Source: an uncultured Acidobacteriota bacterium
GTDB taxonomy: Bacteria > Acidobacteriota > Thermoanaerobaculia > Multivoradales > UBA5704
Assembly: GCA_963700145.1 (NCBI GenBank)
Contig: OY969474.1
Span: 640,001-704,000, forward strand
Direction: 5' to 3'
DNA: 64,000 bases
The position numbers and the translations under genes are program-made. Of the stretch, positions 28,813 through 50,681 are shown piece by piece; the stretch's first letter is position 1; each line of letters starts with the position of its first letter. The notes under the pieces were generated by a model. It saw only the letters and a program-made list of their open reading frames with translations. It had not been told where the DNA came from and searched no databases.

Positions 28813-28816
28813 CGCT

Positions 28817-29329
28817 TCAGGCCTCCGGGCGCAGCTCCATCCCCACCGCGATCAGCTCGTCGCCGCGGCGCTCCAGCACGACGCGCGGCAGCGGCCGCTG
28901 CGGCGGCCCCTGGAGCACGCGGCCGTCCCGGGCCGAGAAGTACCCTTCGTGGCAGGGGCACTCGAGACGGTCCGCGCCGCGCGCGTAGTAGACGGCGCAG
29001 GAGAGGTGGGTGCACTTCTGGCTGAAGGCGGCGTACTCCTCCGGCGCGCGGCGGACGAGGATGCAGGGGTCCTCCGGGCCCGGGTAGCGGAAGAGCTTGA
29101 CCCCGCCGACCGGCACCTCGCCGAGGCGCGCGACCGGCCGCCGCGGGTAGGCCGGCGTGCGGGAGAGCCAGCTCTTGGCCAGGATCCAGACGTTGCCGGC
29201 GAACATCCCCAGGCTGGTGAGGACCAGGAACTTGGCGAACTGCCGGCGGTTGACGTAGCGCTCGTCGGCGCCGTGGACCGAGAACTCCTCGCGCCAGAGC
29301 GGCTCGGCGCTCGGCCGGCGGAGGCTCAC
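28817..29329 (-). CDS. Membrane-anchored Rieske [2Fe-2S] protein
   Basis: NRRQFAKFL twin-Arg-like motif plus TM; CTHLSC...CPCHEG; GTG at 29329. Confidence 0.9.
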
Positions 29330-29919: not shown

Positions 29920-29924
29920 GGCGC

Positions 29925-34404: not shown

Positions 34405-34502
34405 GGGGCTCTGTCGGCTCGCCCGAGTTCTACCACAACGCGGGCGGGCCTTCGAGGGACGGGTGCTAGAGTTTCGGCGTGCTCTCCAGTCCCGAGAGCC
34501 CG

Positions 34503-35855: not shown

Positions 35856-35864
35856 GAGAGACCG

Positions 35865-36521
35865 ATGCGGGTGCTCATCGCCGACGACCATGCCCTCTTC
35901 CGCGACAGCCTGAAGAGCCTCCTCACCGCCCGCGGCCACGAGGTCGTGGCGGAGGCGAAGAACGGGCGCGAGGCGGTCGAGCTGGCGCAGCGCGTGCGCC
36001 CCGACGTCGTCCTCATGGACCTCATGATGCCGGAGCTCGACGGCCTTGCCGCCACGCGGCTGATCAGCGCCGACCTGCCGGACGTCAAGGTCGTCGTCCT
36101 CACCGCCTCCGACGACGACGCCAACCTCTTCGAGGCGATCAAGTCCGGCGCCCAGGGCTACCTGCTCAAGAACCTGGAGTCCGGCGAGTTCTTCGCGCTG
36201 CTCGAGGCGGTGGGGGAGGGGGAGCCGGCGCTGACCCCGGCGCTGGCACGCAAGCTCCTCACCGAGTTCGCCAAGCCCAGCCAGGCCCCCAAGACCGCGC
36301 CGGACCCCGACGCCCTGACCGACCGCGAGCAGAGCGTCCTCGAGCTGCTGGTGCAGGGGGTGACCTCGAACCGGCGCCTCGCCACGCAGCTCGGCGTCAG
36401 CGAGAACACCGTCAAGTTCCACGTCCGCAACATCCTCGACAAGCTGCACCTGCACAACCGCGCGCAGGTCGTCGCCTTCGCCCTGCGCAACCGGCTCGCC
36501 GGCCCCGGCGCCAAGCCGTAG
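35865..36521 (+). CDS. NarL/DosR-family response regulator
   Basis: LIADDH, DVVLMD, GAQGYLLK, LTDREQSVL...SENTVKFHVRNILDKL. Confidence 0.93.
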   Translation: MRVLIADDHALFRDSLKSLLTARGHEVVAEAKNGREAVELAQRVRPDVVLMDLMMPELDGLAATRLISADLPDVKVVVLTASDDDANLFEAIKSGAQGYLLKNLESGEFFALLEAVGEGEPALTPALARKLLTEFAKPSQAPKTAPDPDALTDREQSVLELLVQGVTSNRRLATQLGVSENTVKFHVRNILDKLHLHNRAQVVAFALRNRLAGPGAKP

Positions 36522-36527
36522 CGATTC

Positions 36528-36590
36528 CTACCCTCCCGGGTGGGACCGCTCCCCACCCGCCGGCGCGCGCCGCTCCGCCCCTCGGGGTGT
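36528..36590. promoter_or_regulatory. Putative response-regulator sites upstream of the CBS operon
   Basis: CTACCCTCCCGGGTGG (36528), CCGCCCCTCGGGGTGT (36575). Confidence 0.55.
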
Positions 36591-36644
36591 CGGCGCCGGC
36601 GCCGTTGCAGGCGAGAGTGCCGTCCAACCACGGAGGCCCCCGCC

Positions 36645-37100
36645 ATGCACGACTTGCGCGTTCGCGACCTGATGAGCCCCGGAGTCATCGCCGTCGGCCC
36701 CGAGGAGAGCCTCGCCAAGGCCCACGAGCTGATGCTGGAGCACCGCATCCGGCACCTCCTCGTGGTCGACGCCGACGGCGACCTCGTCGGCCTCCTCACC
36801 CACCGCGACCTGCTCCGCCACTCGCTGATCGAGCAGGTGGCGCTGCCGCCGAGCTTCGCCCGCAGCGTCCTGCGGCGGATCCGCGTCGAGGAGGCGATGA
36901 CCTCGGAGGTGGAGACCGCCGACCCCGACCAGTTCCTGGGCGAGGCCGCGGTCACCATGTTCGACAACAAGTACGGCTGCCTGCCGGTGGTCGAAGGCGC
37001 GCGGCCGGTCGGCATCCTCACCGAGGCGGACTTCGTCCGCTTCTTCGCGCTGTCGCGTCGGCGGCCGGTGCTCGCCCTGGTGGGAGGTTGGCGGGCGTGA
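36645..37100 (+). CDS. CBS-pair protein (AcuB/Hrp1-like)
   Basis: VRDLMS...HRIRHLLVVD...GLLTHRDL...GCLPVV...GILTEADF. Confidence 0.9.
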   Translation: MHDLRVRDLMSPGVIAVGPEESLAKAHELMLEHRIRHLLVVDADGDLVGLLTHRDLLRHSLIEQVALPPSFARSVLRRIRVEEAMTSEVETADPDQFLGEAAVTMFDNKYGCLPVVEGARPVGILTEADFVRFFALSRRRPVLALVGGWRA

Positions 37101-38332
37101 GCGCCGCGCCGGCGCTGCTCAAGCTCGACCTCTACTGCCGCGGGCTCCGCCTGGACGACTCCTGCTTTCTCGAGCGGGACGGCGGCCGGCAGATCCTGCG
37201 CACCCGCGCCGGCCTGGGGAGCGGCCTCGAGCTCGTCCTCCCCGGCGGCCTCTGGACCAACGTCCCGGTGAGCGAGCGCTTCGCCACCCGCTCCCCCTAC
37301 ACGCTGCACCGCGCCGACGGCCGCTACCGGCTGCGCCGGGACGGCGAGGACGTAGCGCCGGTCGAGCTGGCGCCGCGCCCCGGCTGGTACGAGCGGACGA
37401 CGGCGAGCGGCAAGCCGATGACCCGAATCGGCACGCTCCAGGGCACTTACCTGGGCATCTACCAGGCCAAGGTCTGCGAGTACTGGACGCAGAAGCCGCA
37501 GCGGGTCAACTGCAAGTTCTGCTCGGTGGGCTTGAACCTCGGCCTCGACGACGCCGACGAGAAGTCGGTGGCCGAGGTGCTGGAGGTAGTGCAGGCGGCG
37601 CGCGACGAGTCGGGGATCACCTACGTCGACTTCAACACCGGCCACTACGACGGCGACACCTACCTCGACCTGCTGGAGCCCTACATCCGGCGCATCAAGA
37701 GCGAGCTGGGCTTGCTGGTGGGCGTGCAGACGCCGCCGCACCGCGACCTCGAGCGCTACCGCGCCCTGCGCGCGATGGGGGTCAACCGCGTTTCCTTCTG
37801 CTTCGAGATCTGGGACCACCAGCTCTTCCGCACGATCTGCCCGGGCAAGGACGCCGAGTACGGCCTCGACCACTACCTGGAGGCGATCCGCTACTGCGCC
37901 GCGCTCGGCCGCACCGGGCCGCGCGACGAGCCCTGGGTGACCAATGGCGAGATCATCGCCGGCCTCGAGCCGCCGGCATCGTCGATCGCGGCGATCGACT
38001 GGATCACCGCGGTCGGCGCCATCCCCACGGTCTGCGTCTTCCGGCCGCTCACCGGCACCGACCTCGAGAACGCCGAGCCGCCGCGCACCGAAGACCTGGT
38101 GCCGGTCTTCCGCCGCCTCTACGAAGCCTGCATGGAGCGCGGCCTGCCGATCGGCTGCGCGCCGAACGTCCACGTCAGCCTGGTGCTGCTGCCGGAGGAG
38201 TGCCGCGGCCTCTCGCCGCGCCGCTACCCGCTGCAGAGCCTGAAGCTCAAGACCATGGCCGCGGTCTTCGCCCGCCGCTTCGAGCGGCGGTGCGCGGCGC
38301 GCGCCGACACCGGCCGCGCTGCCGCGGCCTGA
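37097..38332 (+). CDS. Radical SAM enzyme with CX11CX2C motif
   Basis: CEYWTQKPQRVNCKFC; GEIIAGLEP; VCVFRPLTGT; GTGA overlap with the CBS gene. Confidence 0.8.
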   Translation: MSAAPALLKLDLYCRGLRLDDSCFLERDGGRQILRTRAGLGSGLELVLPGGLWTNVPVSERFATRSPYTLHRADGRYRLRRDGEDVAPVELAPRPGWYERTTASGKPMTRIGTLQGTYLGIYQAKVCEYWTQKPQRVNCKFCSVGLNLGLDDADEKSVAEVLEVVQAARDESGITYVDFNTGHYDGDTYLDLLEPYIRRIKSELGLLVGVQTPPHRDLERYRALRAMGVNRVSFCFEIWDHQLFRTICPGKDAEYGLDHYLEAIRYCAALGRTGPRDEPWVTNGEIIAGLEPPASSIAAIDWITAVGAIPTVCVFRPLTGTDLENAEPPRTEDLVPVFRRLYEACMERGLPIGCAPNVHVSLVLLPEECRGLSPRRYPLQSLKLKTMAAVFARRFERRCAARADTGRAAAA

Positions 38333-38356
38333 GGACAAGGGTCCGAGGCGGAGGTG

Positions 38357-38394
38357 AGTTCCGCAAGTCCTGCAGGATGAAGCTGTCGATCGTG
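38357..38394. repeat. 38-bp copy of an internal segment of the porin gene (40408-40445)
   Basis: AGTTCCGCA(A/G)GTCCTGCAGGATGAAGCTGTCGATCGTG, 37/38 identical, same orientation. Confidence 0.85.
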
Positions 38395-38430
38395 CAAGAG
38401 CAGATTTGCTCCCGGTGCGCCGACTCCGCC

Positions 38431-39978
38431 ATGCTGAGGCACCCGGAGCCGTCCCGCTTGATCCCCTCACCGCCTTCCGACCACGCGCTTTCCCTCGAGC
38501 GCGAGATCGCGGCCTTCGAGGCGCTCAAGCCACGGCTCCTCGAAGTCTGGGACGCGCTCACCCTTCGCGACCACGCGGAGCACACGTCGGTGGTGGTGCC
38601 CTCCCTGACGCTCGACCAGGAGGATCTGCAGAACCTCGCCGGCGCCAGCTACTACGAGGAGCGGTTGCTCTTCCTGTTGATCCGCCTGCGCAACCCCCGG
38701 GCCCGGGTCGTCTACGTCACGTCCCAGCCGATCCATCCCGACGTCCTCGAGTACTACCTCCAACTCCTCGCCGGCATCCCGGCCAGCCATGCCCGCGCGC
38801 GGCTGACCCTGCTCTGCGCGCACGACGCCTCGCCCCGCTCGCTCACCGAGAAGGTCCTCGAGCGCCCCCGCTTGATCGAGCGGATCCGGCGGGGGATACC
38901 CGACTGCTCGCGCGCCTATCTGACGGTCTTCAACTCGACACCGCTTGAGCGGCGGCTGGCGGTGCTGCTCGGCATTCCGCTCAACGGCTGCGATCCGGCG
39001 CTCGCCCACCTCGGCTCGAAGTCCGGTTCGCGCCGGGTGTTTCGCCGGGCGGGGGTATCCCTGCCGGCGGGGTTCGAGGACCTCCACGACCGCAGCGAGA
39101 TCGAGGAGGCGCTCGCGGCGCTCGGCCGCGAGCGGCCGGGGCTCCGGCGAGCCGTGCTGAAGCTGGACGACAGCTTCTCCGGGAAGGGGAACGCGCTCGT
39201 GCGCCTGCCGGCGGCAGGGGGTCGCGACGCGCTGCGGCGGGCCGTCGACCGGCTCGAATTCACCGTCCCGGGCGAGAGCAGCGATGACTACTTCACGAAG
39301 TTCTCGCGGATGGGCGGCGTCGCCGAAGAATTCATCGAGGGCCTGGACAAGACGGCGCCGAGTGCGCAACTGCGCATCGATCCGCGCGGCGAGGTCGTGC
39401 CGCTCTCGACACACGACCAGGTGATGGGCGGGCCCGGCGGCCAGGTCTTCCTCGGCTGCACGTTCCCGGCACGTGACGAATACCGCGGTGCCGTGCAGGA
39501 CGCGGCTGCCAAGATCGGCACGGTCCTCAGCGCCGAGGGCGTGGTGAGCCGCTTCGGCGTTGACTTCCTCGCCTGGCGCGAAGCCGCCTCACCCGCCTGG
39601 CGCCTGGCGGCGCTCGAGATCAACTTGCGCATGGGCGGGACCACGCATCCGTTTCTGGCGCTCCAGTTCCTCACCGGCGGCGCGGTCGACCCGGCGACCG
39701 GCGTCTTCTACGCGCCGAGCGGCAAGCCGAAGTTCTACCGGGCGACGGACAACCTGGAGAGCCCCAGGTACCGCGGGCTGCTGCCCGAGGACCTCATCGA
39801 CATCCTGACGATGAACGGGCTGCACTACGACTACGCCTCGGAGTCCGGCGCGCTCTTCCACCTGCTCGGCGCGACCTCCGAGTTCGGCAAGCTCGGCATG
39901 GTCGCCATCGCCAGCTCGCGCGGGGAGGCGGATGCCGTCTACGAGCAGGCGCTCGCGGTCCTCGACCGCGAGGCCTAA
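38431..39978 (+). CDS. PGM1-related peptide-ligase-type ATP-grasp protein
   Basis: VVVPSLTLD, YEERLLFLL, GSKSGSR, LSTHDQV.GG, EINLRMGGTTHPF; start 38377 or 38431. Confidence 0.8.
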   Translation: MLRHPEPSRLIPSPPSDHALSLEREIAAFEALKPRLLEVWDALTLRDHAEHTSVVVPSLTLDQEDLQNLAGASYYEERLLFLLIRLRNPRARVVYVTSQPIHPDVLEYYLQLLAGIPASHARARLTLLCAHDASPRSLTEKVLERPRLIERIRRGIPDCSRAYLTVFNSTPLERRLAVLLGIPLNGCDPALAHLGSKSGSRRVFRRAGVSLPAGFEDLHDRSEIEEALAALGRERPGLRRAVLKLDDSFSGKGNALVRLPAAGGRDALRRAVDRLEFTVPGESSDDYFTKFSRMGGVAEEFIEGLDKTAPSAQLRIDPRGEVVPLSTHDQVMGGPGGQVFLGCTFPARDEYRGAVQDAAAKIGTVLSAEGVVSRFGVDFLAWREAASPAWRLAALEINLRMGGTTHPFLALQFLTGGAVDPATGVFYAPSGKPKFYRATDNLESPRYRGLLPEDLIDILTMNGLHYDYASESGALFHLLGATSEFGKLGMVAIASSRGEADAVYEQALAVLDREA

Positions 39979-40314
39979 CGGTCCCGCCGCACCTCGCGGT
40001 CGACGCGGTCGACGAAGCGGCACCAGCCAGACCGGCACTGCGGCCAGCGGCAGCAGGACGGCGAAGACCAGCCGGTCCCCGAAGCGGTCGGCCAGCATGC
40101 CGGCCGGGAGGCGCCCGACCGCGCCCAGGAGGACGGGCAGGGCGACGAGCAGGGCGGTGCGCGTGGCGCTGAGCGCGAAGAGCTCGCGGAAGCGCGGCGC
40201 GAAGGCGCCGATCAACCCCCAGGCGGCGAAGGAGACGGCGAACGAAACGGTGGCGAGGGCGAGATGGCGGACCGAGGACGAGGCCGGCTGGGTGGCGGCG
40301 GCGGTCGACGTTAC
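39975..40314 (-). pseudogene. Collapsed second copy of the nitrate reductase operon (narK 5-prime end fused to the last codons of the DUF6755-like gene)
   Basis: 40018-40314 closely matches 34111-34404; 39975-40017 matches 28564-28606 (FVDRVDREVRRDR*); GTG start changed to GTA. Confidence 0.88.
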
Positions 40315-40321
40315 GGCACCG

Positions 40322-42613
40322 TCAGAAGGCCAGTGTCAGGTCGAGCATGAAGATGTCGGCCTGGTAGTCGCCGTTGTCGGCATTGAGCAGCAGCGCGCCC
40401 GGCAGGTAGTTCCGCAGGTCCTGCAGGATGAAGCTGTCGATCGTGTAGTCCTCGTGGCGGTAGGTGAACCCCGCCTCGGCGCTCTCGGCGATGCGGTAGT
40501 CGAGCCGGCCCTGGAGGGCGAAGAGCTCGATGTCCTCGTAGTTGGGCAGGTCGATCGGCGCCGTGCGCGTGCCGAGCGGCAGGCCGCCGGGGACGGCGAA
40601 GAAGTCGGCGAAGCCGTCGGATTCCGTCCAGTTCCCCGAGACGTCCGCCGTCCAGCCTTCGGCGAAGCGGCTGGTCAGGCCGAGGCCCCAGGTGTCGTTG
40701 ACCTCGTCGAAGTCGATCGACCAGTCGTCGATCGGCCGCGTCGAGGGGGCGGCGCCCGACTGCCGGCCGCGCTGGGAGACGTCGCGGTCGGCGCGGTGGC
40801 CGAAGAGGTAGAAGTTGAGCTTCTCGCCCGGCGCGTAGGAGACCTCGGCGTTGTACTGGATCACCTCGTCGGCGAGGAGGCCGTGCGCGCTCTCGTCGTA
40901 CTCCTCGTCGCGGCCGGTGACGCCCGCGGTGAAGGTCCAGGCGTCGGTGGGGTAGAAGTCGGCCAGGAGCCGCCACTGGTCGTACTCCCGCGCCGCCTGC
41001 GCGTACTTGCGCAGCCCGGGCTGGTTGTTGGCCCCTGCGGGGTCGCCGAAGCTCGCCTCCTGCGCCTCGACGTCGTAGCCGTCGATCGAGCGGTCGGCGA
41101 TCTCGTAGCTCGCCCGGAGGTTGAGGCGGCGGGTCGGCCGGGTGTCGAAGCTCAGGGTCACGACGTCCTCGTCGGAGCCCTCCACCTCGCGGAACTCGCG
41201 GTCCCAGGTCTGGCGCCGGTAGGCCAGCCCCAGGCTGCTGTCGCGGAAGACCTCCCAGTCGAGGTCGAAGCCGAGGTCCTGGCGGGTGTAGGCATAGGGC
41301 ACGGTGACGCGCGGGATCTCCTCCCAGACCGAGTGGAAGCGGACGTAGCCGGGGAACTCGATCCGCGGCGAGCGGTTGTCGTAGTCGTAGTAGCGGTAGC
41401 GGAAGACCAGCGACACGTCCTCGCCGACGCGCGTGCCGACGTCGCCGTTGAGCGCCAGCACCTGCACCTCGGTGTCGGCGTTGCGCACCGGCAGGTTGGC
41501 GGGGTCCGTGGCGTCGAAGGTGGCGTGGGTTTGCAGGTCGACGCCGCGGATCGCGCTGTTGAGGGTGTAGGGCAGCAGCGGCTCGTCCTGGGTCATGAGG
41601 TTGTACGAGGCGCTGCCGCTCGCCCACCAGTCCCCGGCGAAGCGGGCGCGGCCGTCGGCGAAGACCACGCTCGAGCGGTTGTCGGGCGACAGGTCGGCGA
41701 AGCCGCGGGCGGCGCCGTTGATCGACGAGCTGCTCGGCGACTGGTAGGCGTTGGCGTCCGTCGAGTCGGTCGCCCGGAACGGGTTGTCCCAGAAGAGAGT
41801 GCTGACGTCGTTCTGGAAGGTCGAGTGGCGGACGCCGAAACGCGCCCCGCCGCGCTCGCCCTTCCACTCGCCGGCCAGCTCGGCCCCGGTGGTGTCGTAC
41901 TCGATCGGCTCCGGCAGCTCGGTGACGTTGTTGAAGCCGAACGAGGCGCCGTAAGGGCGGTTGCCGCTGCGGTTCTCGTGCGTGTACTCGATCCCCCAGG
42001 CGAGCCGCCCCATCTTGCCGAGGTCGAGCCGCGCCGCCGTGCGGTCGCGCCGCAGGCCCAGGCTCACCTCCTGCTCGGCGGCGAGGTAAGGAGCCAGCAC
42101 CTGGTCGAGAAAGGCGAAGGTGACGCCGGTGCGGTTGGCGGTGAACTGCTGCTGCACGGCGCCCTGGATCGCCGCCTGCACCGGGTCGGCGATCTCGTAG
42201 ACGCCGGGGCCGGTCCGGCTCCAGAGCATGCGGCCGCCGTTGCCGAAGCGGTGGGGGATCTTGTTGTAGTCGAGCCGCAGCTCGTAGCGTCCGGAGAGGC
42301 CGTAGGCGAGGGTGTAGCGGGCGTCCTCGCGGCCGATGCGGGCGGCGGCGAAGTCGAAGGTGCGGTTGTGGTCGGCGCTCTCGCCCTCGACGTCGAGGGA
42401 GGCGAGGAAGCCGCTGCCGAGGTCGCGGTACTCCTCGAACTTGGCCGAGTCGGTGTCGACGTCGGTCTCGAGCACGGCGAAGACGAGCGGATCGACGCGG
42501 AAGGTGAACCCCTGCGCCGCGGCGTCCTGGGCCGCGGCCGGCGCGGCGGCGGCGAGGCAGAAGAACCCGGCGAGGACGGCGGCGGCCTGCGACTTGATCG
42601 TGCGGGCGTCCAT
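40322..42613 (-). CDS. MtrB/PioB-family outer-membrane beta-barrel
   Basis: Signal peptide; SAKFEEYRD, LPEPIEYDT, LFWDNPF; C-terminal Phe; adjacent to a decahaem cytochrome. Confidence 0.88.
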   Translation of the reverse strand: MDARTIKSQAAAVLAGFFCLAAAAPAAAQDAAAQGFTFRVDPLVFAVLETDVDTDSAKFEEYRDLGSGFLASLDVEGESADHNRTFDFAAARIGREDARYTLAYGLSGRYELRLDYNKIPHRFGNGGRMLWSRTGPGVYEIADPVQAAIQGAVQQQFTANRTGVTFAFLDQVLAPYLAAEQEVSLGLRRDRTAARLDLGKMGRLAWGIEYTHENRSGNRPYGASFGFNNVTELPEPIEYDTTGAELAGEWKGERGGARFGVRHSTFQNDVSTLFWDNPFRATDSTDANAYQSPSSSSINGAARGFADLSPDNRSSVVFADGRARFAGDWWASGSASYNLMTQDEPLLPYTLNSAIRGVDLQTHATFDATDPANLPVRNADTEVQVLALNGDVGTRVGEDVSLVFRYRYYDYDNRSPRIEFPGYVRFHSVWEEIPRVTVPYAYTRQDLGFDLDWEVFRDSSLGLAYRRQTWDREFREVEGSDEDVVTLSFDTRPTRRLNLRASYEIADRSIDGYDVEAQEASFGDPAGANNQPGLRKYAQAAREYDQWRLLADFYPTDAWTFTAGVTGRDEEYDESAHGLLADEVIQYNAEVSYAPGEKLNFYLFGHRADRDVSQRGRQSGAAPSTRPIDDWSIDFDEVNDTWGLGLTSRFAEGWTADVSGNWTESDGFADFFAVPGGLPLGTRTAPIDLPNYEDIELFALQGRLDYRIAESAEAGFTYRHEDYTIDSFILQDLRNYLPGALLLNADNGDYQADIFMLDLTLAF

Positions 42614-42626
42614 GACGTCCTCCCCC

Positions 42627-43583
42627 CTAGTGCGCCAGGTACGGCGCGGACGGGTGGTTGCTGCCGTGGATCGCGGCGTGGCAGTCCAGGCAGGCCCGGT
42701 TGAAGACGCGGTTGCTGCCGCGCGCCGGGTCCTCGAGGGTCGGCACGCGCAGGCCGTCGTAGAGGGTCCCGGGGTGGCGGGTGTTGGCGTGGCACTGCTG
42801 GCACAGGTACGGCACCGACGTCTTCTGCAGCTTCAAGTGGTTCGAGCCGTGCGGCGTGTGGCAGTTGAGGCAGCTCTCGCGCACCGGCGGGTGGTCCCAG
42901 AGGAACGGCCCGCGCTTCTCGGTGTGGCAGGAGTAGCACTGGTCGTTGACCGAGGCGGCGCGGATCAGCTTCGGGGTCGAGGCGCCGTGCGGGTTGTGGC
43001 AGTCGGAGCAGGAGATCTTCCCCTCGCGGATCGGGTGGTGGGAGTTCTTCCAGGTCTCGGCGCGGACGTCCTTGTGACAGGCGAAGCACTGCTCGGCGAC
43101 GGTGGCCGTCTTGAGCTGCGCCTGCTCGGTCTTGGGCGCATGGACGCTGTGGCAGGAGATGCAGGAGAGGCCGCGCATCTGATGGCGGCTGCCCTGCCAG
43201 AACATCTGCTGGCCGCCGTCGTGGCAGGTGCGGCAGACCGCGACCTGCGCCGGGACGCTCAGGCGGTCCACGCGGGGGTGGAGCGCCGGGTCGTCCGGGT
43301 TCTCGGCGTGCGCGGCGCCCGGGCCGTGGCAGGTCTCGCACCCCAGGTCCGAGAGGCGCGCGAACGCGGCCTTGCCGTGAGGCGTGCCGGCGAGGTGCGT
43401 GGCTTCGGCGTCGTGGCAGGCGGCGCAGGTCTCGGCGCCGGCGTAACCCGGCGCCGCCGCCGCGTGCGCGGGCGCCAGTGGCGGCTCGGGGGGTTCCTGC
43501 TGCCGGGGGGCGGCGCTGCTGCCGGAAGCGGCAGCGAGGAGCGCGCCGGCGGCGACCGGGACCAACAGGTAGGGAAGCCTCAT
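42627..43583 (-). CDS. DmsE/MtrA/MtoA-family periplasmic decahaem cytochrome c
   Basis: Ten CxxCH motifs (CAACH, CETCH, CRTCH, CISCH, CFACH, CSDCH, CYSCH, CLNCH, CQQCH, CLDCH); EKRGPFLWDH; IHGSNHPS. Confidence 0.93.
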   Translation of the reverse strand: MRLPYLLVPVAAGALLAAASGSSAAPRQQEPPEPPLAPAHAAAAPGYAGAETCAACHDAEATHLAGTPHGKAAFARLSDLGCETCHGPGAAHAENPDDPALHPRVDRLSVPAQVAVCRTCHDGGQQMFWQGSRHQMRGLSCISCHSVHAPKTEQAQLKTATVAEQCFACHKDVRAETWKNSHHPIREGKISCSDCHNPHGASTPKLIRAASVNDQCYSCHTEKRGPFLWDHPPVRESCLNCHTPHGSNHLKLQKTSVPYLCQQCHANTRHPGTLYDGLRVPTLEDPARGSNRVFNRACLDCHAAIHGSNHPSAPYLAH

Positions 43584-43660
43584 CGGGCCCTCCTCCCGCT
43601 TCGCGGGTCGGACGTCCAAGAACGACGAGACCATCTTTCGCGCCGCCGGGCTCGCGCGCC

Positions 43661-43701
43661 ACGACTCCCGGGGTAGTTTCCTTCCCTACCCGCCAGGGTG
43701 G
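43661..43701. promoter_or_regulatory. Putative response-regulator sites in the divergent cytochrome promoter
   Basis: CTACCCGCCAGGGTGG (43686) and a GGGGTAG half-site 25 bp upstream. Confidence 0.55.
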
Positions 43702-43770
43702 GATCGAGACCGAGCAGTTGGTTCTAGAATAGCTCCAAACGGATCGATTGCAACCGCGAAAGGGGCGACC

Positions 43771-44130
43771 ATGAAAGCCACCCTCGTCCTCGCCGGCGCC
43801 GTCTCGGCGCTGCTCCTGGCCTTCGCCCTCTCGACGCCCGCGACGGCCGCCGCCCAGGCCAAGCTCGACGGCAAGGCGATCTTCCTGGCCCAGAAGTGCA
43901 GCCTCTGCCACGACGTCTCGTCGGCGGCCATCACCGCGACGGTGAAGTCGGCGGCGATGAAGGGCCCCGACCTGACGGGCAAGGCGAGCAAGCGCGACGC
44001 GACGCTGCTCAACAACTACCTGCGCAAGAAGGCCGACATCAACGGCAAGAAGCACAAGAAGGAGTTCAGCGGCAGCGACGAGGAGATCGGCGCCCTGATC
44101 GCGTGGCTGCAGGCGCAGGAGAAGAAGTAA
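43771..44130 (+). CDS. Periplasmic monohaem cytochrome c
   Basis: Signal peptide; CSLCH; GPDL; Lys-rich. Confidence 0.88.
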   Translation: MKATLVLAGAVSALLLAFALSTPATAAAQAKLDGKAIFLAQKCSLCHDVSSAAITATVKSAAMKGPDLTGKASKRDATLLNNYLRKKADINGKKHKKEFSGSDEEIGALIAWLQAQEKK

Positions 44131-44140
44131 GGCCGCGGGC

Positions 44141-44755
44141 ATGCCCTTCTTCGCGGAAGTCCTCGCGGTCTTTACTCTGGTCACCATCGCCCTGGCGGCG
44201 CTGGTAGCCCTCCGTCCGGCGCTGACGGCGGCGCGCGGCGGCAAGGTCCTGGCCTTCCTCGCCCTGCTGGTGCTGCCGCTGGCGATGACGGCCCTCGGGG
44301 TGTCGGCGCACGTGGAGCGCTCCAAGTCGACGGAGTTCTGCCTCTCCTGCCACGTCATGGAGCCGTACGGCAAGAGCCTGCGGGTGGACGACGCCAGCTT
44401 CGTGCCGGCCAGCCACTACCAGAACAACCGTGTGCCGCGCGACAAGGCCTGTTTCACCTGCCACACCGACTACACGATGTTCGGCGACGCCAAGGCGAAG
44501 CTGCGCGGCCTGCGGCACGTCTACGTGTACTACCTGGCCGGGGCGCCGGAGAAGATCGCGCTCTACGAGCCGTACAACAACCGCGAGTGCCTGCACTGCC
44601 ATGCCGGCGCGAGGAGCTTCGAGGAGAGCGAGCTGCACGTGGAGATCCGCGACGAGCTACGCACGAGCCAGACCTCCTGCCTGGAGTGCCACGACATGGT
44701 CCACGAGGTGGACCAGCTCGCCGGCAAGCCGTTGTGGAAGGTGGCCCGCCGGTGA
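44141..44755 (+). CDS. NapC/NirT/CymA-family membrane tetrahaem cytochrome c
   Basis: Two TM; STEFCLSCHVM, CFTCH, CLHCH, CLECH. Confidence 0.9.
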   Translation: MPFFAEVLAVFTLVTIALAALVALRPALTAARGGKVLAFLALLVLPLAMTALGVSAHVERSKSTEFCLSCHVMEPYGKSLRVDDASFVPASHYQNNRVPRDKACFTCHTDYTMFGDAKAKLRGLRHVYVYYLAGAPEKIALYEPYNNRECLHCHAGARSFEESELHVEIRDELRTSQTSCLECHDMVHEVDQLAGKPLWKVARR

Positions 44756-44958
44756 CCGCCGCCGAGTCGCTGCTCGCGCGCCGCTTCAAGATCGCCGCGG
44801 TGCTGGTGTCGGTCGGCCTGGCGATCGAGGCGCTGACCCTCTTCTGGGCCCACCCCACGGCCTTCCTCGCCTTTCTCCTGATCGGCGGCACCCTCGTCGC
44901 CGCCGGCGTGCTCCTCTACCTCTACTCGATCGTCAGCTACACGACCCCGCCGCGGTAG
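44752..44958 (+). CDS. Small two-TM membrane protein
   Basis: GTGA overlap; GLAIEALTLFWAHPTAFLAF. Confidence 0.65.
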   Translation: MTAAESLLARRFKIAAVLVSVGLAIEALTLFWAHPTAFLAFLLIGGTLVAAGVLLYLYSIVSYTTPPR

Positions 44959-45014
44959 GCGGCGCCGAGCGCTCGGGCCGCGTCGCGAGCTAGTGCTCGC
45001 CGCCCGCCGCCGAG

Positions 45015-45471: not shown

Positions 45472-45930
45472 TCATGGATGCCCGCCGGGGTTGGCGGGGT
45501 GCTCGGCGCCGTGCCCGGCCGCGACGAGCGGCGCGTTCCGGCCCTCCAACGCCACGACCTCGAAGCGCGGCGGCTCCTCGATGTGCGCCTTTACCTTGCA
45601 GTGCTCGACCGCGCGCACGATCGCGGGGCGGTACTTCTCGGGGAAGTCCGGCGGCAGGGCGATCTCGAGCCGTACCGTCGTCACCCGCCCCCGCTCGTCG
45701 AGGTCGGTCTCGAGCGTCACGCCGAGGCCGTCGGTGGGGAGGGCGCGCTCCTGGCAGAAGCGGAGCGCGTAGTACCCCCCGCAGGTCCCGATCGAGGCGA
45801 GGAAGAGATCGAACGGAGAAGGCGCCGAGCCCGTACCCCCCGCCTCACGGGGCTGGTCCGTGCGAACCGTGTGACCTTGATAGGAGGCATCCACGGCCCG
45901 TCCTCCAGGGAAGCTGATGTGCATTGTCAT
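45472..45930 (-). CDS. OsmC/YcaO-N-like family protein
   Basis: VRTDQP..GG.GSAPSPFDLFLASIGTC...HCKVK. Confidence 0.88.
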   Translation of the reverse strand: MTMHISFPGGRAVDASYQGHTVRTDQPREAGGTGSAPSPFDLFLASIGTCGGYYALRFCQERALPTDGLGVTLETDLDERGRVTTVRLEIALPPDFPEKYRPAIVRAVEHCKVKAHIEEPPRFEVVALEGRNAPLVAAGHGAEHPANPGGHP

Positions 45931-46033
45931 GGTTTTCTCCCTTTTGCGCGTCGCCGCCCTCGCAACTCGCAATGTGACAGAGCGCCTCGCCGCCCGCACC
46001 GTCAATCCGGGTAGTTTCCGCCGCGCGTCGGAG

Positions 46034-46049
46034 CCACCCGAGCAGGTGG
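46034..46049. promoter_or_regulatory. Putative response-regulator site upstream of the OsmC gene
   Basis: CCACCCGAGCAGGTGG plus GGGTAG/GGGTGG half-sites nearby. Confidence 0.5.
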
Positions 46050-46083
46050 GGACGGCGGTCGTCTCGCTGGGTGGGGTGAACAC

Positions 46084-49000
46084 CTACGCCGCCTCCTGGA
46101 GCGCCGCCTCCGGCGGCGGCGTGGCGGCGAGATGGCGCACCTCGGTGCGCCACTTCCAGAGCTTGTAGATCGCCGGGTAGACCAGCAGCTCGAGCAGGAA
46201 CGAGGTGGCGAGGCCGCCGATCATCGGGGCCGCGATGCGCTGCATGACGTCGGCGCCGGCCGCCGTCGACCACATGATCGGCAGCAGGCCCATGAATGCC
46301 GCGCAGACGGTCATCAGCTTCGGCCGCGCCCGCTTGACCGCGCCGTGGACGATCGCCTCGTCGAGGTCGGCGGCGGAGCGCAGCCGCCCTTCGCGCTTGG
46401 CCTCGTCGTAGGAGAGGTCGAGGAAGAGGAGCATGAAGACGCCGGTCTCGGCGTCGAGCCCGAGCAGCGCGATCATCCCCACCCAGGCGGCGATCGAGAC
46501 GTTGTAGCCGAGCAGCCAGAAGAGCCAGATCGCGCCGACCGCCGAGAACGGCACCGCCAGCATCACCACCAGCGCCTTGAAGCCCGAGCGGGTGTTGGCG
46601 TAGAGGAGCGCGAAGATGAGCGCCAGGGTCACCGGCACCACGACCTTCAGGCGCTCGCGGACGCGCAGCATGTTCTCGTACTGGCCGCTCCAGACGAGCG
46701 AGAAGCCCGCCGGCAAGCGGAGCTGCTCGCCGACCGCGCGCTTGGCCTCCTCGACGTAGCCGCCGATGTCGCGGCCGGCGATATCCACGTAGACGTAGCC
46801 GGCGAGAAAGCCGTTCTCGTCGCGGATCATCGACGGCCCCTGCACGACCTCGATCGTGGCGAGCTGGGCGAGCGGCACCTGCGCCCCGGCCGGCGTCGCC
46901 ACCAGCACCCGCGCCAAGCGGTCGGGGTCGTCGCGTAGCTCGCGCGGGTAGCGGACGTTGATCGGGTAGCGCTCGCGCCCTTCGATGGTGGTCGAGACGT
47001 TCTCGCCGCCGATGGCGCTGGCGACGACCATCTGCACCTCCTCGATCGTCAGCCCGTAGCGGGCGAGCTGGCCGCGCCGCGGCACGACGTCGACGAAGTA
47101 GCCGCCGGCCACGCGCTCCGCATAGACACTGCGGGTGCCGGCGACGCCGCGGAGGATGGCCTCGAGGTGCTGGCCGGTGCGCTCGATCTCCTCCAGGTCG
47201 TCGCCGAAGACCTTGATGCCGATCGGGGTGCGCACCCCGGTCGTCAGCATGTCGATCCGCGCCTTGATCGGCATCGTCCAGGCGTTGGTGACCCCTGGCG
47301 CGCGCAGCGCGCGGTCCATCTCCGCGATCAGGGCCTCGTAGGCGATGCGGTCGGACCAGAAAGGGCGGAAGGCGGGCTTGAGCCACTCCGGCGACCACGC
47401 CGAGTACCACCGCACTTTGGGCCGCCACGCGCTTTCGGGTTTCAAGACGACGGTCGTCTCGACCATCGAGAAGGGGGCGGGGTCGGTCGAGGTGTCGGCG
47501 CGGCCGGCCTTGCCGAAGACCCGCTCGACCTCGGGGAAGCCGCGCAGCACCCGGTCCTGCGCGGTCAGCAGCTCCTGCGCCTGCGCCACGGACACGCCGG
47601 GAAGCGTGGTCGGCATGTAGAGGATCGTCCCCTCGTGGAGCGGCGGCATGAACTCCCGGCCGAGCGCGAAGTAGACGGGGAGGCTCACCAAGACCAGCGC
47701 CAGCGCCGCCGCGACCACCGCCGCCGGCCGCCGCAGCACGAAGCGACAGGCCGGCTCATAGACGCGGAAGACGGCGCGGCTGATCGGGTGCCGCTCTTCG
47801 GGGCGGTAGGTGCCGACCGCGGCGGCGCTCGCCACCCGCGCCAGCCAGCGCGGCCGGAAGCGGAAGGGCTCCATGCGGGTGAAGAGCATGCGCATCGCCG
47901 GGTCGAGGGTGATGGCGAGGAGGGCGGCGATCGCCATCGCCAGGTTCTTCGAGTAGGCGAGCGGCTTGAAGAGGCGCCCCTCCTGATCGACCAGGGCGAA
48001 GACCGGGATGAAGGCGACGGCGATGACCAGGAGCGAGAAGAAGACCGCCGGGCCGACCTCCTGCAGCGCCTCGAGGCGCACGGCGTGGAAGTCACCCTTG
48101 CCCCCTTCCGCCTGCCAACGGTGGAGCTTGTTGTAGGCATTCTCCACCTCCACGATCGCGCCGTCCACCAGGACGCCGATCGAGATGGCGATACCGGCCA
48201 GCGACATGATGTTGACCGTCACCCCCATCCAGGCCAGCGGGATGAAGGCGAGCAGCACCGCGACCGGGATGGTGACGATCGGCACGGCGGCCGAGGGCAG
48301 GTGCCAGAGGAAGAGGAGGATGACCAGCGCGACGATCACCATCTCGAGGACCAACTCGTGGCGCAGCGTCGCGATGGCGCGGCCGATCAGGTCGGCGCGG
48401 TCGTAGGTGGTGACGATCTCCACCCCGGCGGGCAGCGAAGGCTGGAGATCGCGGAGCTTCTGCCGCACCGCGCGGATGACGTTGACGGCGTTCTCGCCGT
48501 GGCGCATGACGACGATGCCGCCGACGTGGTCGCCGAGGCCGTCGAGATCGGCGACGCCGCGCCGCATCTCGGGGCCGAGCTCGACGCGGGCGACGTCGCG
48601 GACGAGCACGGGAACGCCGGCGGGGGAGGTCTTCAAGACCGCCTGCTCGAGGTCCGCGGGCGAGGTGACGTAGCCGCGGCCTCGCACCATGTACTCGGTG
48701 CCGCTCCACTCGATGAGCCGCCCGCCGACCTCGTTGTTGGAGCGCCGCAGCGCCTCGACCACGGTGCCGAACGGGACGCCGTAGGCCGCGAGGCGGTTGG
48801 GGTCGGCGACCACCTGGTACTGCTTGACGAAGCCGCCGATGGCCGCCACCTCCGCCACCCCCGGCACCGACTGCAGGGCGTAGCGCAGCGTCCAGTCCTG
48901 ATAGGAGCGCAGCTCGTCGAGCGAGTGCTCGCCGCTGCGGTCCACGAGCGCGTACTGGAAGACCCAGCCGACGCCGGTGGCGTCGGGCCCCAGCTCGGTC

Positions 49001-49374
49001 CGCACGCCCTCCGGCAGGCGGGCCTGGATCTTCGACAGGTACTCGAGGACGCGCGAGCGCGCCCAGTAGAGGTCGGTGCCGTCGCGGAAGACGACGTAGA
49101 CGTAGGAGAAGCCGAAGTCGGAGTAGCCGCGCACCGCCTTGACCCGCGGCGCGCCGAGGAGCGCGGTGACGATCGGGTAGGTGACCTGGTCCTCGATGAT
49201 GTCGGGCGAGCGGTCCCACTGCGAGTAGACGATCACCTGGGTGTCCGAGAGGTCGGGCAGGGCGTCGAGGCGGATCGTGCGCAGCGTGTAGAGCGCGAGC
49301 GCGACGAGGGCGGCCACGGTGAGCAGGACGAGGCCGCGGTTGCGCGCCGAGAAGGCGATGACGCGCCGGATCAC
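46084..49374 (-). CDS. cusA: CusA-type heavy-metal RND permease
   Basis: DALPDLSDTQVI, LGPDATGVGWVFQY, MPIKARIDML, RIAAPMIGG. Confidence 0.92.
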   Translation of the reverse strand: MIRRVIAFSARNRGLVLLTVAALVALALYTLRTIRLDALPDLSDTQVIVYSQWDRSPDIIEDQVTYPIVTALLGAPRVKAVRGYSDFGFSYVYVVFRDGTDLYWARSRVLEYLSKIQARLPEGVRTELGPDATGVGWVFQYALVDRSGEHSLDELRSYQDWTLRYALQSVPGVAEVAAIGGFVKQYQVVADPNRLAAYGVPFGTVVEALRRSNNEVGGRLIEWSGTEYMVRGRGYVTSPADLEQAVLKTSPAGVPVLVRDVARVELGPEMRRGVADLDGLGDHVGGIVVMRHGENAVNVIRAVRQKLRDLQPSLPAGVEIVTTYDRADLIGRAIATLRHELVLEMVIVALVILLFLWHLPSAAVPIVTIPVAVLLAFIPLAWMGVTVNIMSLAGIAISIGVLVDGAIVEVENAYNKLHRWQAEGGKGDFHAVRLEALQEVGPAVFFSLLVIAVAFIPVFALVDQEGRLFKPLAYSKNLAMAIAALLAITLDPAMRMLFTRMEPFRFRPRWLARVASAAAVGTYRPEERHPISRAVFRVYEPACRFVLRRPAAVVAAALALVLVSLPVYFALGREFMPPLHEGTILYMPTTLPGVSVAQAQELLTAQDRVLRGFPEVERVFGKAGRADTSTDPAPFSMVETTVVLKPESAWRPKVRWYSAWSPEWLKPAFRPFWSDRIAYEALIAEMDRALRAPGVTNAWTMPIKARIDMLTTGVRTPIGIKVFGDDLEEIERTGQHLEAILRGVAGTRSVYAERVAGGYFVDVVPRRGQLARYGLTIEEVQMVVASAIGGENVSTTIEGRERYPINVRYPRELRDDPDRLARVLVATPAGAQVPLAQLATIEVVQGPSMIRDENGFLAGYVYVDIAGRDIGGYVEEAKRAVGEQLRLPAGFSLVWSGQYENMLRVRERLKVVVPVTLALIFALLYANTRSGFKALVVMLAVPFSAVGAIWLFWLLGYNVSIAAWVGMIALLGLDAETGVFMLLFLDLSYDEAKREGRLRSAADLDEAIVHGAVKRARPKLMTVCAAFMGLLPIMWSTAAGADVMQRIAAPMIGGLATSFLLELLVYPAIYKLWKWRTEVRHLAATPPPEAALQEAA

Positions 49375-50681
49375 GGGGCGCCTCCGCCGTGGACGTGTGC
49401 AGGCGCGCTCATGTCGGCGACCGCCGCCCGCAGGCGCGACTCGGAGTCGAGCAGGAAGTTGGCGCGCACCGCGACCCGCTCGCCGGCGGCGACGCCGGAG
49501 AGGATCGCCGCCTCACCGCCGCCGCGGAGCCCCACCCGCACCTCCCGCGGCTCGAACCTGCCGTTGCGAGCGACGAACACCACTTGCCGCAGGCCGGTGT
49601 CGAGCACCGCCGAGTCGGGAACCACGACCCCCTCTTGGGTCTCGAGCTCGGGGGTGACGTCGAGGTACATCCCCGGCTTGAGCTGGAGCGACGGGTTGGC
49701 GAGCTCGATCCGCGCCCGCAGCGTGCGGGTCGCCGGGTCGACGGTCGGGTAGACGAAGCCGACGCGACCGGTGAAGCGCACCGCCGGGTCGTAGGGTAGA
49801 GAGAGCGCGACCGGCCGCCCGACGCCCAGGGCGCGGCTCTCGATCTCGTAGAAGTCCGCTTCCACCCAGACCCGCGACAGGTCGGTGATGGTGAGGAGGT
49901 CCATCCCCGGACCGACCTCCATCCCCTCGAAGACTTCCTTGGCGGTGACGTAGCCGGAGACGGGGGCGAGGAGCGTCACCGTGCGCTGCGGCTTCCCCGT
50001 GCGGTCGAGCGCGGCGAGGAGGCTGCGCGGCGCGTCGAACAGCTCGAGACGGCGACGGGCGGCGCTGAGCAGATCGGCGCCGCCCTGCCGCACCTCGGGG
50101 AGCGAGGAGCCGGCGAAGCGGCCCGCCGCCTCGCGCGCCCGCAGGTACTCCTCCTGGGTCGCCAGGAGCTGCGGCGAATAGATGGCGAGCAGCGGCTGGC
50201 CGGCCCGTACCGGCTGGCCGACGAAGTTGACGTGCAGGTGCTCGATCCAGCCGGAGATCTTGGTGTGGACGTGGCGCACGCGCGTCTCGTCGGCGGCCAC
50301 CAGCCCGACGGTGCGCACCGAACGGGTGAGGGTGCGGCGCTCCGCGACGGCGGTCTTGACCCCGGCGAGGCGCCGCGCCGCGGTGTCCGGCGCGACCGGC
50401 GCGAGGCCGGGGATCCCGTCCTCGGGGCGGGCGGCGCTCGCCGCCGGAGCCGACCTCGAAGGCGGCAGGTTCGGCCGCTCGATCGGCACCAGGCGCATGC
50501 CGCAGATCGGGCAGTCGCGGGGCGCGTCGGCGACGAAGTCGGGGTGCATCGGGCAGTGGTACTGGACCGCCGCCGGCGGCAGGGCCGCGCGGCAGGACGT
50601 CAGATAGCCCACGACCCCCAGCAGCGCCAGCGCGGGGAGGAGCAGGAGGACGGTCGTGCGGATCGGTCGAGACAGGCTCAT
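49371..50681 (-). CDS. CusB-type periplasmic adaptor with heavy-metal-binding domain
   Basis: YHCPMHP...CPICGM; YSPQL; FLLDSES; ATG at 50681. Confidence 0.9.
   Translation of the reverse strand: MSLSRPIRTTVLLLLPALALLGVVGYLTSCRAALPPAAVQYHCPMHPDFVADAPRDCPICGMRLVPIERPNLPPSRSAPAASAARPEDGIPGLAPVAPDTAARRLAGVKTAVAERRTLTRSVRTVGLVAADETRVRHVHTKISGWIEHLHVNFVGQPVRAGQPLLAIYSPQLLATQEEYLRAREAAGRFAGSSLPEVRQGGADLLSAARRRLELFDAPRSLLAALDRTGKPQRTVTLLAPVSGYVTAKEVFEGMEVGPGMDLLTITDLSRVWVEADFYEIESRALGVGRPVALSLPYDPAVRFTGRVGFVYPTVDPATRTLRARIELANPSLQLKPGMYLDVTPELETQEGVVVPDSAVLDTGLRQVVFVARNGRFEPREVRVGLRGGGEAAILSGVAAGERVAVRANFLLDSESRLRAAVADMSAPAHVHGGGAP

Follow-up and report, generated by a model that had tools for sequence, protein, structure and literature searches.

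The window analysed here is a stretch of 64,000 nucleotides (nt) and corresponds to C1:640001-704000, C1 being the single contig (5.46 Mb, 71.5% G+C) of which the host genome consists. Judged by MtrB, the closest genomes are metagenome-assembled Thermoanaerobaculia (Acidobacteriota). Positions 40322-44958 of the window, which a sequence-only reading had singled out at these very coordinates as an electron conduit, hold exactly five genes, and the locus they form is genuine and represents the Mtr/Mto kind in complete form. A decahaem cytochrome gene followed by a barrel gene occupies the minus strand; divergent from them, on the plus strand, are the genes for a monohaem cytochrome c, a tetrahaem cytochrome and a small membrane protein. 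The junctions are tight, with 13 nt between the end of mtrA and mtrB, 10 nt between the cytochrome c gene and the start of the NapC-like gene, and an overlap (-4 nt) between the latter and the small gene. Family matches and haem counts agree with this composition as it had been read from the letters, and on sequence grounds the five genes very probably constitute a complete Mto-type, MtrC-less electron path spanning the envelope. The genome contains a second copy of the module (copy B, C1:4738527-4743085, or locus L004:8528-13086); the one in the window is referred to as copy A. The features of the latter are as follows.

40322-42613, minus strand: MtrB/PioB-family outer-membrane beta-barrel, 763 amino acids (PF11854, 319.6 bits, E 5.9e-95).
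42627-43583 (open reading frame to 43634), minus strand: MtrA/DmsE-family periplasmic decahaem cytochrome, 318 amino acids from the likely start at 43583 (TIGR03508).
43670-43703, no strand: inverted repeat with three half-sites, CCYACCC-N4-GGGTRGG and then a CCCACCC-like one, in the divergent promoter region.
43771-44130, plus strand: MtoD-like class I monohaem cytochrome c, 119 amino acids, predicted bis-His (PF00034).
44141-44755, plus strand: NapC/NirT/NrfH-family tetrahaem cytochrome of the quinol dehydrogenase type, 204 amino acids (PF03264).
44752-44958, plus strand: two-helix membrane protein, 68 amino acids, without a Pfam or NCBIfam match.

The barrel exceeded the cut-off of PF11854 (MtrB_PioB; 23 bits) by far, with profile positions 3-634 of 635 covered, and its gene lies beside that of a decahaem cytochrome, which together place it among the MtrB/PioB/MtoB barrels; on the stricter model TIGR03509 it scored 224.5, under the cut-off of 240.05. 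It carries a Sec signal peptide, within which its sole Cys is located (residue 19), and the mature part is devoid of Cys, unlike its counterpart in Shewanella. MtrB of metal-reducing Gammaproteobacteria has a CXXC motif. The decahaem protein contains 10 CXXCH motifs in 318 amino acids, scored 260.4 bits on TIGR03508 (DmsE family; cut-off 192.2) and matched PDB chain 6r2q_A at E 1.4e-63 over residues 20-333, all ten haem motifs being aligned; haem count, family model and structural match assign it to the MtrA/DmsE/MtoA/PioA decahaem cytochromes. Its closest named relatives are likewise 318 amino acids long, and at least 5279 relatives were found among 8000 scored candidates, the best 120 of these 5279 all being close ones. 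According to the available passage of the corresponding paper, 6R2Q is MtrAB of Shewanella baltica, and its chain C is labelled as belonging to the OmcA/MtrC family.

The monohaem cytochrome scored 31.7 bits on PF00034 (cut-off 21.3); its mature form is basic (isoelectric point 9.6), and the protein holds only two His and two Met. In the alignment of 17 module-linked homologues, F38, K42, C43, C46, H47, D67, H95 and G101 do not vary. Met63 has given way to other residues in many of the sequences, that of copy B included, and no Met is conserved. For MtoD, the accessible part of the structure paper describes haem attachment to Cys43/Cys46, His47 and His95 as ligands (an unusual bis-His ligation) and a potential of +155 mV. 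A family profile found MtoD (4xxl_A) over its full length at rank two, with an E value of 0.0036. The single sequence did not retrieve MtoD from the PDB at E<=10, the best match being a c-551 (E 0.018), and the AlphaFold model (pLDDT 77.2) matched only generic class I cytochromes in Foldseek, where 4xxl ranked 27th, with no match at E<=0.001. The pattern of conserved residues is that of a protein which is probably bis-His and MtoD-like.

The tetrahaem protein contains four CXXCH motifs and exceeded the cut-off of PF03264 (40.3 versus 24.1 bits), but stayed below those of TIGR03153 (NrfH; 52.2 versus 134.2) and TIGR02161 (NapC/NirT; 20.9 versus 310.6). An alignment of 13 homologues has an invariant CXXCHxM as first haem motif, three more CXXCH and four more invariant His; the first motif, as far as the papers at hand go, also occurs in NrfH and in the tetrahaem cytochrome of Sideroxydans lithotrophicus ES-1. 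Two N-terminal helices (residues 4-24 and 34-61) were modelled with pLDDT 73-87, the haem domain poorly, and the whole model (pLDDT 53.8) was too poor for a fold search. Relatives numbered at least 3577 (E<=1e-5) among 8000 scored candidates and were named "NapC/NirT family cytochrome c". The designation "CymA-like", which the sequence-only reading had used, holds at the level of the NapC/NirT family; the score on TIGR02161, the two N-terminal helices and the partner subunit described below speak against anything narrower. In its available part, a 2018 survey reports CymA homologues only from Proteobacteria.

For the small protein, an open reading frame of 44587-44958 had originally been given. 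The most likely start is the GTG at 44752, which overlaps the stop of the NapC-like gene as GTGA; copy B has ATG at the aligned codon. Gene layout indicates that the small protein is translationally coupled to the NapC-like gene. Pfam and NCBIfam contained no match, and the nearest Atlas clusters are annotated "hypothetical protein", with Acidobacteriota as the commonest phylum. Each of the 11 loci examined has a small hydrophobic open reading frame after the NapC-like gene, and G22, L23, P35, F38, F41, G52, Y56 and L57 are the same in all 12 sequences compared, which come from the window, copy B and ten close loci. When the complex of the NapC-like and the small protein was predicted, the score was 0.70 (0.70, 0.70 and 0.73 in the individual runs), compared with 0.00 for the best control; a mark of 0.70 was attained by 116 of 157 solved complexes and by two of 215 mismatched pairs. 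Contacts agreed in at least 97%, the partner had a pLDDT of at least 85, and the predicted interface comprises both helices of each protein and extends as far as residues 66 and 69-70, which adjoin the first haem motif. The small protein is thus predicted to be a membrane subunit of the NapC-like cytochrome.

Copy B matches window positions 40315-44967 and nothing beyond (94.4% of 3300 nt, 92.3% of 1275 nt), which delimits the five genes as a discrete unit. Identical residues between the copies amount to 707/763 for MtrB, 308/335 for MtrA, 106/119 for the cytochrome c, 191/204 for the NapC-like protein and 63/68 for the small protein, and in four of the five genes non-synonymous changes do not outnumber synonymous ones. 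The mtrB gene of copy B is one base longer within the part for the signal peptide, so that its ATG and the barrel are in different frames. No assembled contig bridged this site with 31 nt on both sides, and the frame break may be real or an assembly error. Copy B also lacks ~84 bp of the divergent intergenic region, including most of the conserved repeat.

The absence of MtrC, first stated for the window, extends to the whole genome, where the best score on the OmcA/MtrC model TIGR03507 was 19.2 bits (cut-off 209.3). Open reading frames with at least three CXXCH number 10 genome-wide; four of them belong to the two modules, and none is MtrC-like. The other six encode three multihaem-TPR proteins, one protein with CCP/MauG di-haem peroxidase domains, one with FixO and class I cytochrome c domains, and one P460-like protein. 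The three TPR-fused proteins (4-7 CXXCH; C1:1172673-1174976, 4675924-4678806 and 5372009-5374027) account for half of the multihaem open reading frames outside the modules, and one of them scored 25.4 on PF22113 (cut-off 30). Among 18 open reading frames with one or two CXXCH, no obvious Cyc2-like cytochrome-porin was found, this being a crude screen without a hidden Markov model.

Relatives were surveyed in the 20 closest loci (L005-L024, by tblastn) and in a class sample of 201 genomes from 81 genera. MtrA, MtrB, the cytochrome c and NapC occur together in half of the loci (L005, L007, L011, L014, L017, L018, L019, L020, L021 and L023), in seven of which tblastn found the small protein as well. 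In the class sample, an MtrB homologue (E<=1e-20) is present in 17 of the 201 genomes and 13 of the 81 genera. The inner-membrane end of the module is not fixed: in L006, L008, L012 and L013, the cytochrome c gene is followed by genes for an ImcH-like and a CbcL/MtoC-like protein, which replace NapC and the small protein. L006 represents the nearest sister genome, with 94% MtrB identity. The ImcH-like protein (~480 amino acids; checked in L006 and L008) combines three hydrophobic segments at its N-terminus with one CX3CH and five CXXCH, a set of features given as the ImcH signature in the accessible part of the 2018 survey, which there reports imcH as not seen next to mtrAB/mtoAB. The second protein (~655 amino acids) has CbcL/MtrH/MtoC architecture, with 11 CXXCH fused to a cytochrome b561/FdnI-like domain (b561 detected in L008 and L013). 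Near the module, four loci encode 11-haem cytochromes (L007:1-1998, L013:10609-13734, L016:586-2814 and L019:11609-13516), scoring 29.8-35.3 bits on PF22113 (MtrC domain II/IV; cut-off 30); in L007, L013 and L019 the extreme C-terminus is hydrophobic. These are possible surface partners, which the host genome lacks. The host genome contains nothing homologous to the relatives' 11-haem, ImcH-like and CbcL-like proteins apart from mtrA, which was matched weakly. In a tree of 53 decahaem proteins from the fetched loci, those of the Thermoanaerobaculia type form a clade of 19 rows (SH-aLRT 100), within which both inner-membrane variants are interspersed; the four rows of copy A, copy B, L005 and L006 group together in a clade without resolved branching.

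At lower positions of the window than the module lies a molybdenum (Mo) enzyme cluster (28564-34404, minus strand), a fragment of which is also found directly next to mtrB.

28817-29329, minus strand: Rieske protein with NRRQFAKFL (twin-arginine-like) and then a hydrophobic helix (PF00355, 42.2).
29326-29919, minus strand: DmsB-type four-cluster Fe-S subunit, 5 nt past the stop of the alpha subunit (PF13247, 72.8).
29925-32177 (likely start 32144), minus strand: NasC-like molybdopterin catalytic subunit (NF047855, 768.7 versus a cut-off of 1100).
32170-34404, minus strand: NarK-type MFS transporter fused to a NarI/QmoC/TmcC-like cytochrome b domain, 744 amino acids (TIGR00886, 209.3).
39998-40316, minus strand: remnant of the 5' end of the narK-fusion gene, ~95 codons, 7 nt past the mtrB stop (91.9% identity over 319 bp).

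The fusion gene is the first of the cluster. Its product matched QmoC, TcuB and TmcC weakly and scored 17.8 on PF02665, under the cut-off, as all its cytochrome b matches were; many relatives of the class encode the membrane domain in a gene of its own (~370-420 amino acids). The NasC-like subunit, for which no twin-arginine signal was found, scored 230.1-232.4 on two NapA models, 32.5 on NarG and 137.3 on a dmsA/ynfE model. The Fe-S subunit reached 90 on TIGR02951, and the Rieske protein was matched weakly by the QcrA, PetC and arsenite-oxidase small-subunit models, all of these scores being under the cut-offs. A DUF6755 protein comes after the Rieske gene. Genome-wide, the best scores were 25.6 for NarG (cut-off 1084) and 111.9 for NapA (cut-off 930.55), and the NasC-like enzyme is the only nitrate-reductase-like one found. 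The genome contains no NrfA, no sirohaem nitrite/sulfite reductase domain and no NirK over the cut-off (NirS was not searched), which sets the enzyme outside any obvious assimilatory route. A plain assimilatory Nas function was considered and dropped in view of the Fe-S, Rieske and cytochrome b parts and the lack of a sirohaem nitrite reductase. By its gene content, the Mo-enzyme looks membrane-linked and dissimilatory, with substrate and topology inferred only. A literature search for a NarK-NarI fusion yielded no paper on this enzyme.

The remnant next to mtrB is 91.9% identical to window positions 34092-34406, the start of the narK-fusion gene. In L007 (77% MtrB identity), an intact fusion gene lies 58 nt past mtrB on the same strand, with the NasC orthologue after it, and its product is 90% identical to that of the window over 745 amino acids. 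Remnant and intact order together lead to mtrA-mtrB-narK-nasC as the ancestral order, which indicates that conduit and NasC-like enzyme were once joined in one operon in this lineage. In the window, that order is now split by a 5.6-kb block (34407-39997) containing, all on the plus strand, genes for a kinase, a regulator, a CBS-domain protein, a radical-SAM protein and an ATP-grasp protein, and in L005 only remnants of the fusion gene persist, connected to DUF6755 and the last part of the Rieske gene. Two genomes from another family of the class carry the linkage in arrangements of their own, narK-nasC-FeS/Rieske, gap, mtrA-mtrB-napC in G160 and mtrA-mtrB, gap, CBS, cytochrome b gene, nasC, Rieske in G124, each on one strand and with gaps of about 3.6-3.7 kb, so that linkage to mtrAB is known in three different gene orders. 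The fusion query was matched in 35 of the 201 sampled genomes of the class (E<=1e-40; some matches cover one domain only), namely in 11 of the 17 MtrB-positive genomes and 24 of the 184 others, relatives among them not being independent. The remnant, L007 and the recurrence in another family provide comparative support for a link between conduit and reductase. A connection to the adjacent "nitrate reductase", as the sequence-only reading had put it, is thereby strengthened as far as linkage goes, whereas the enzyme itself is neither Nar nor Nap.

The inverted repeat of the divergent promoter region is present upstream of mtrA in 12 of 26 loci scanned (L005-L024 included). The strict pattern has two matches in the entire genome (5.46 Mb), both in the window, at 43670-43703 and 36527-36561; the second lies directly past a LuxR-type regulator gene and could be its terminator hairpin. 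Three of the 12 repeat sites contain C-A mismatches, which favours protein binding over an RNA stem, and the repeat at 43670-43703 is probably an operator. The repeat region gave nothing at E<=1 in Rfam, a promoter consensus scan returned 0 promoters and 1 terminator-like site (1.8 expected), and FNR/CRP-type palindromes were represented by just two matches with 2 mismatches, both in one relative. Two genes of the 5.6-kb block encode a potential signalling pair.

34470-35855, plus strand: GAF/HisKA_3 sensor kinase (Pfam; NarQ and NarX models match weakly).
35865-36521, plus strand: LuxR/NarL-type response regulator (Pfam).

Orthologues of both adjoin the module in L017, and a homologue of the response regulator adjoins it in L020. 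The pair are candidate regulators, which may bind the repeat. The remainder of the block (36540-39978) encodes the CBS-domain protein, a variant radical-SAM protein (NF045502) and an ATP-grasp protein (BesA/PGM1-like); homologues of the first two also adjoin the module in L014 and L018, and one of the ATP-grasp protein lies near that of G160. On the other side of the module, directly beside it (45472-51920, minus strand), an OsmC-like gene occurs together with a heavy-metal efflux pair of the CusA/CusB type, whose CusB-like member contains a heavy-metal-binding domain; the CusA flank is shared with L006. Farther away, at 25775-28000, the G+C content falls to 0.62, compared with ~0.72 elsewhere, and the open reading frames have no family matches except for one TIR-domain match (CAP12/Pycsar effector) at 20.9 bits, under the cut-off; this stretch may be foreign DNA.

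The closest described layout is the Mto cluster of S. lithotrophicus ES-1 (slit_2494-2498), which consists of pmcA, imoA (formerly cymA-ES-1), mtoB, mtoA and mtoD. Both are five-gene clusters without MtrC and share a decahaem cytochrome, an MtrB-type barrel, a NapC/NirT tetrahaem cytochrome with CXXCHxM and a 119-amino-acid monohaem cytochrome with haem Cys43/Cys46 and His47/His95. The parallel to the mto clusters of Gallionellaceae, which had been drawn from the window, is borne out by the MtoD length and these four residues, and by sister genomes with a layout of the CbcL/MtoC type. There are also differences: the phyla are not the same, menaquinone (here) stands against ubiquinone (ES-1), the tetrahaem cytochrome has two N-terminal helices rather than one, the operons are divergent, and the likeness to MtoD amounts to just the profile match, with a generic fold. 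No equivalent of PmcA, the second monohaem cytochrome (His/Met) of the ES-1 cluster, was found, since the gene adjoining the NapC-like one encodes the haem-free 68-amino-acid membrane protein, without Cys or CXXCH, and the module contains one monohaem gene. In ES-1, according to the accessible part of a 2026 paper, it is PmcA, not MtoD, that partners ImoA and MtoA, MtoD may feed a high-potential acceptor, and ubiquinone is the only quinone. The mtoA-mtoB-mtoC-mtoD architecture of Gallionella capsiferriformans ES-2 and Dechloromonas aromatica RCB is paralleled in L006, L008, L012 and L013, whereas the host genome lacks the CbcL/MtoC variant and the sister genomes add the ImcH-like 5-haem protein.

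With MtrCAB-CymA of Shewanella (6R2Q), the module shares MtrA homology, the MtrB-family barrel and an inner-membrane quinol dehydrogenase of the NapC/NirT type; it differs in lacking MtrC/OmcA and in that the periplasmic carrier is a cluster-encoded monohaem cytochrome, not STC or FccA. PioABC of Rhodopseudomonas palustris TIE-1 likewise comprises a decahaem and barrel pair without MtrC, which, as far as the source at hand describes it, serves for electron uptake in TIE-1; the 318-amino-acid decahaem protein here lacks the long haem-free N-terminal extension that the same source gives for PioA, and the carrier is a cytochrome c rather than a HiPIP. The decahaem protein also passed the DmsE-family model, and DmsEFAB of Shewanella is an MtrC-less conduit that feeds a molybdoenzyme. 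In contrast to DmsEFAB, however, the Mo subunit in the window has no Tat signal and is NasC-like rather than DmsA (768.7 versus 137.3 bits), and it is accompanied by the NarK-cytochrome b fusion and the Rieske protein.

The physiological setting was deduced from the remainder of the genome. Two MqnA/MqnD-family genes (PF02621) exceeded the cut-off, whereas no MenA turned up in the genome and UbiA remained under its threshold (112 versus 275), which suggests that the host has menaquinone only and makes it by the futalosine route. Two COX1 haem-copper oxidases are encoded; the large subunit of RuBisCO was not found in the genome. The stretch occurs in at least 20 sequencing runs; the 20 listed are DNA runs from nine studies, labelled as soil (16), rhizosphere (two), sediment (one) and urban (one).

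In the proposed mechanism, the NapC/NrfH-type tetrahaem cytochrome of the inner membrane, together with its 68-amino-acid partner, would exchange electrons with the menaquinone pool, the basic, probably bis-His monohaem cytochrome would shuttle them through the periplasm, and the MtrA-type decahaem inside the MtrB-type barrel would take them over the outer membrane, where its outermost haem would meet extracellular redox species directly. The haem chain is expected to be reversible. If the chain is used inward, Fe(II), mineral-bound Fe(II) or reduced humics would supply electrons to the monohaem cytochrome. From there they would enter either the route via the NapC-like protein and menaquinone or a sink of high potential, for which the NarK-cytochrome b/NasC-like/Fe-S/Rieske complex (reducing nitrate to nitrite) and the two haem-copper oxidases are candidates. 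That the wire is mainly used inward in this lineage, for uptake to nitrate or O2, is our tentative preference, at somewhat less than an even chance. It is favoured because OmcA/MtrC and surface-type homologues are missing and multihaem open reading frames are few in the genome, and because the cytochrome c is probably MtoD-like and bis-His, mtrB once lay 7 nt from the narK fusion and the linkage is recurrent. The co-occurrence of fusion and MtrB, the NasC-like enzyme as the only one of its type and the two oxidases add to this. A number of observations weigh against uptake. If menaquinone is the only quinone, as the genome suggests, reduction of the quinone pool by Fe(II) would be uphill, and without RuBisCO such an uphill branch would not be needed for autotrophy; "feeding the quinone pool", as originally proposed, is therefore thermodynamically awkward, in contrast to ES-1 with ubiquinone as its sole quinone. 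In sister genomes, the partners of ImcH-like and CbcL-like type and the 11-haem cytochromes point to export, ImcH having so far been tied, in the source available, only to quinol oxidation. Decahaem trees, as described in the part of the literature at hand, do not part oxidisers from reducers, and MtoA and PioA form no function-specific clades. In the class sample, only three of the 17 genomes with MtrB have conduit and reductase linked on one contig, most module-bearing loci have no reductase within 8 kb, and in one complete genome the two are more than 400 kb apart; L005 keeps the module despite its narK remnants, and copy B has no reductase nearby. None of the listed runs with the stretch is an RNA run. 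The view that direction is not to be had from the sequence, already held in the sequence-only reading, is shared here, as the evidence points both ways.

Flow in the opposite direction, from menaquinol via the NapC-like cytochrome and its small subunit to the monohaem cytochrome, MtrA/MtrB and the outside, is rated only slightly less probable than uptake. The nitrate-reductase-like cluster would then be a second anaerobic sink in the same co-inherited island, and the lack of a surface cytochrome would restrict the acceptors to soluble or colloidal ones (chelated Fe(III), humic quinones, perhaps Mn(IV)). Enzymes of the NapC/NrfH type are typically quinol dehydrogenases, the CXXCHxM motif is invariant here, the genome looks menaquinone-only and lacks RuBisCO, the same core is paired with ImcH-like and CbcL-like cytochromes in sister genomes, and some relatives have surface-type 11-haem cytochromes. 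Thermoanaerobaculum reduces Fe(III)/Mn(IV). MtrAB without MtrC is a stable delivery module according to the available passage of another paper. On the other hand, no extracellular cytochrome of any kind was found in the host genome; the characterised MtrC-less MtrAB homologues, as far as the sources at hand describe them, oxidise or feed an extracellular non-haem reductase, which is absent here; ancestral co-transcription with the nitrate-reductase-like operon would be odd for two competing sinks; and a monohaem potential as high as the +155 mV of MtoD, if it applies, would be a thermodynamic trap on the way out. Overlapping with uptake is an unlikely variant in which the cytochrome c feeds the periplasm-facing Rieske subunit directly, giving a chain from extracellular donor to nitrate that bypasses menaquinone and moves charge over the membrane, the NapC-like branch merely balancing the quinone pool. 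It would fit the twin-arginine-like motif and helix of the Rieske protein, the succession of genes for a predicted cytochrome b domain, a Mo subunit that lacks a signal and a four-cluster Fe-S subunit, the recurrence of the linkage in three gene orders and, from the part of the 2026 paper at hand, the role now ascribed to MtoD in serving a high-potential acceptor rather than ImoA. However, the idea is drawn from domain content alone, all cytochrome b and Rieske family matches lie below curated cut-offs, and most Mtr modules of the class are away from the Mo-enzyme cluster. The topology of the Mo-enzyme is also ambiguous; the alpha subunit could leave on the Rieske signal. The alpha subunit of arsenite oxidase is exported on the signal of its Rieske partner. 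Equally improbable, by our estimate, is that conduit and Mo complex form a self-contained pathway in which extracellular Fe(II)/humic electrons reduce cytoplasmic nitrate; entry via a periplasmic Rieske protein and b haems would mean that the transfer itself builds membrane potential. Least likely of all is the absence of any respiratory role, the module being a periplasmic redox buffer, a detoxification system or a little-used relic of horizontal transfer. The patchy spread (17/201 genomes, 13/81 genera), the frame break in mtrB of copy B and the ~84 bp missing from its promoter region would agree with this, but copy A is intact, the five genes are conserved to ~50% identity with invariant haem ligands, and the environmental families are large (at least 5279 decahaem and at least 3577 NapC-like relatives).

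Four of the five genes already carry generic names in public annotation, such as "DmsE family decaheme c-type cytochrome" among the relatives. A literature search on Thermoanaerobaculia and Mto/Mtr produced no paper on the module, supplements, which possibly list acidobacterial homologues, being outside its scope. New are a small protein predicted to be a subunit of a NapC-type cytochrome with two helices, the presence of the entire five-gene module in duplicate, the swapping of inner-membrane partners between close relatives, and the ancestral linkage of the conduit to an unusual NasC-like membrane complex.

MtrAB/MtoAB conduits are the main genetic markers for iron cycling in metagenomes, but it is only from a few Proteobacteria that their direction and partners are known. 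In soil Thermoanaerobaculia the Mto-type layout is present in full, with an MtoD-like cytochrome (predicted bis-His) among its parts; its inner-membrane end is exchanged between NapC-type and ImcH/CbcL-type in genomes with 94% identical MtrB, and the conduit has repeatedly been linked to the NasC-like complex. Should this link have no function, the locus would simply be one more ordinary representative of a kind already known. If it is functional, it would provide an enzymatic route for nitrate-dependent Fe(II)/humic oxidation, a process long debated for want of a dedicated pathway; in the improbable case of the self-contained pathway outlined above, soil Acidobacteriota would possess such a route via a previously undescribed type of membrane-bound nitrate reductase.

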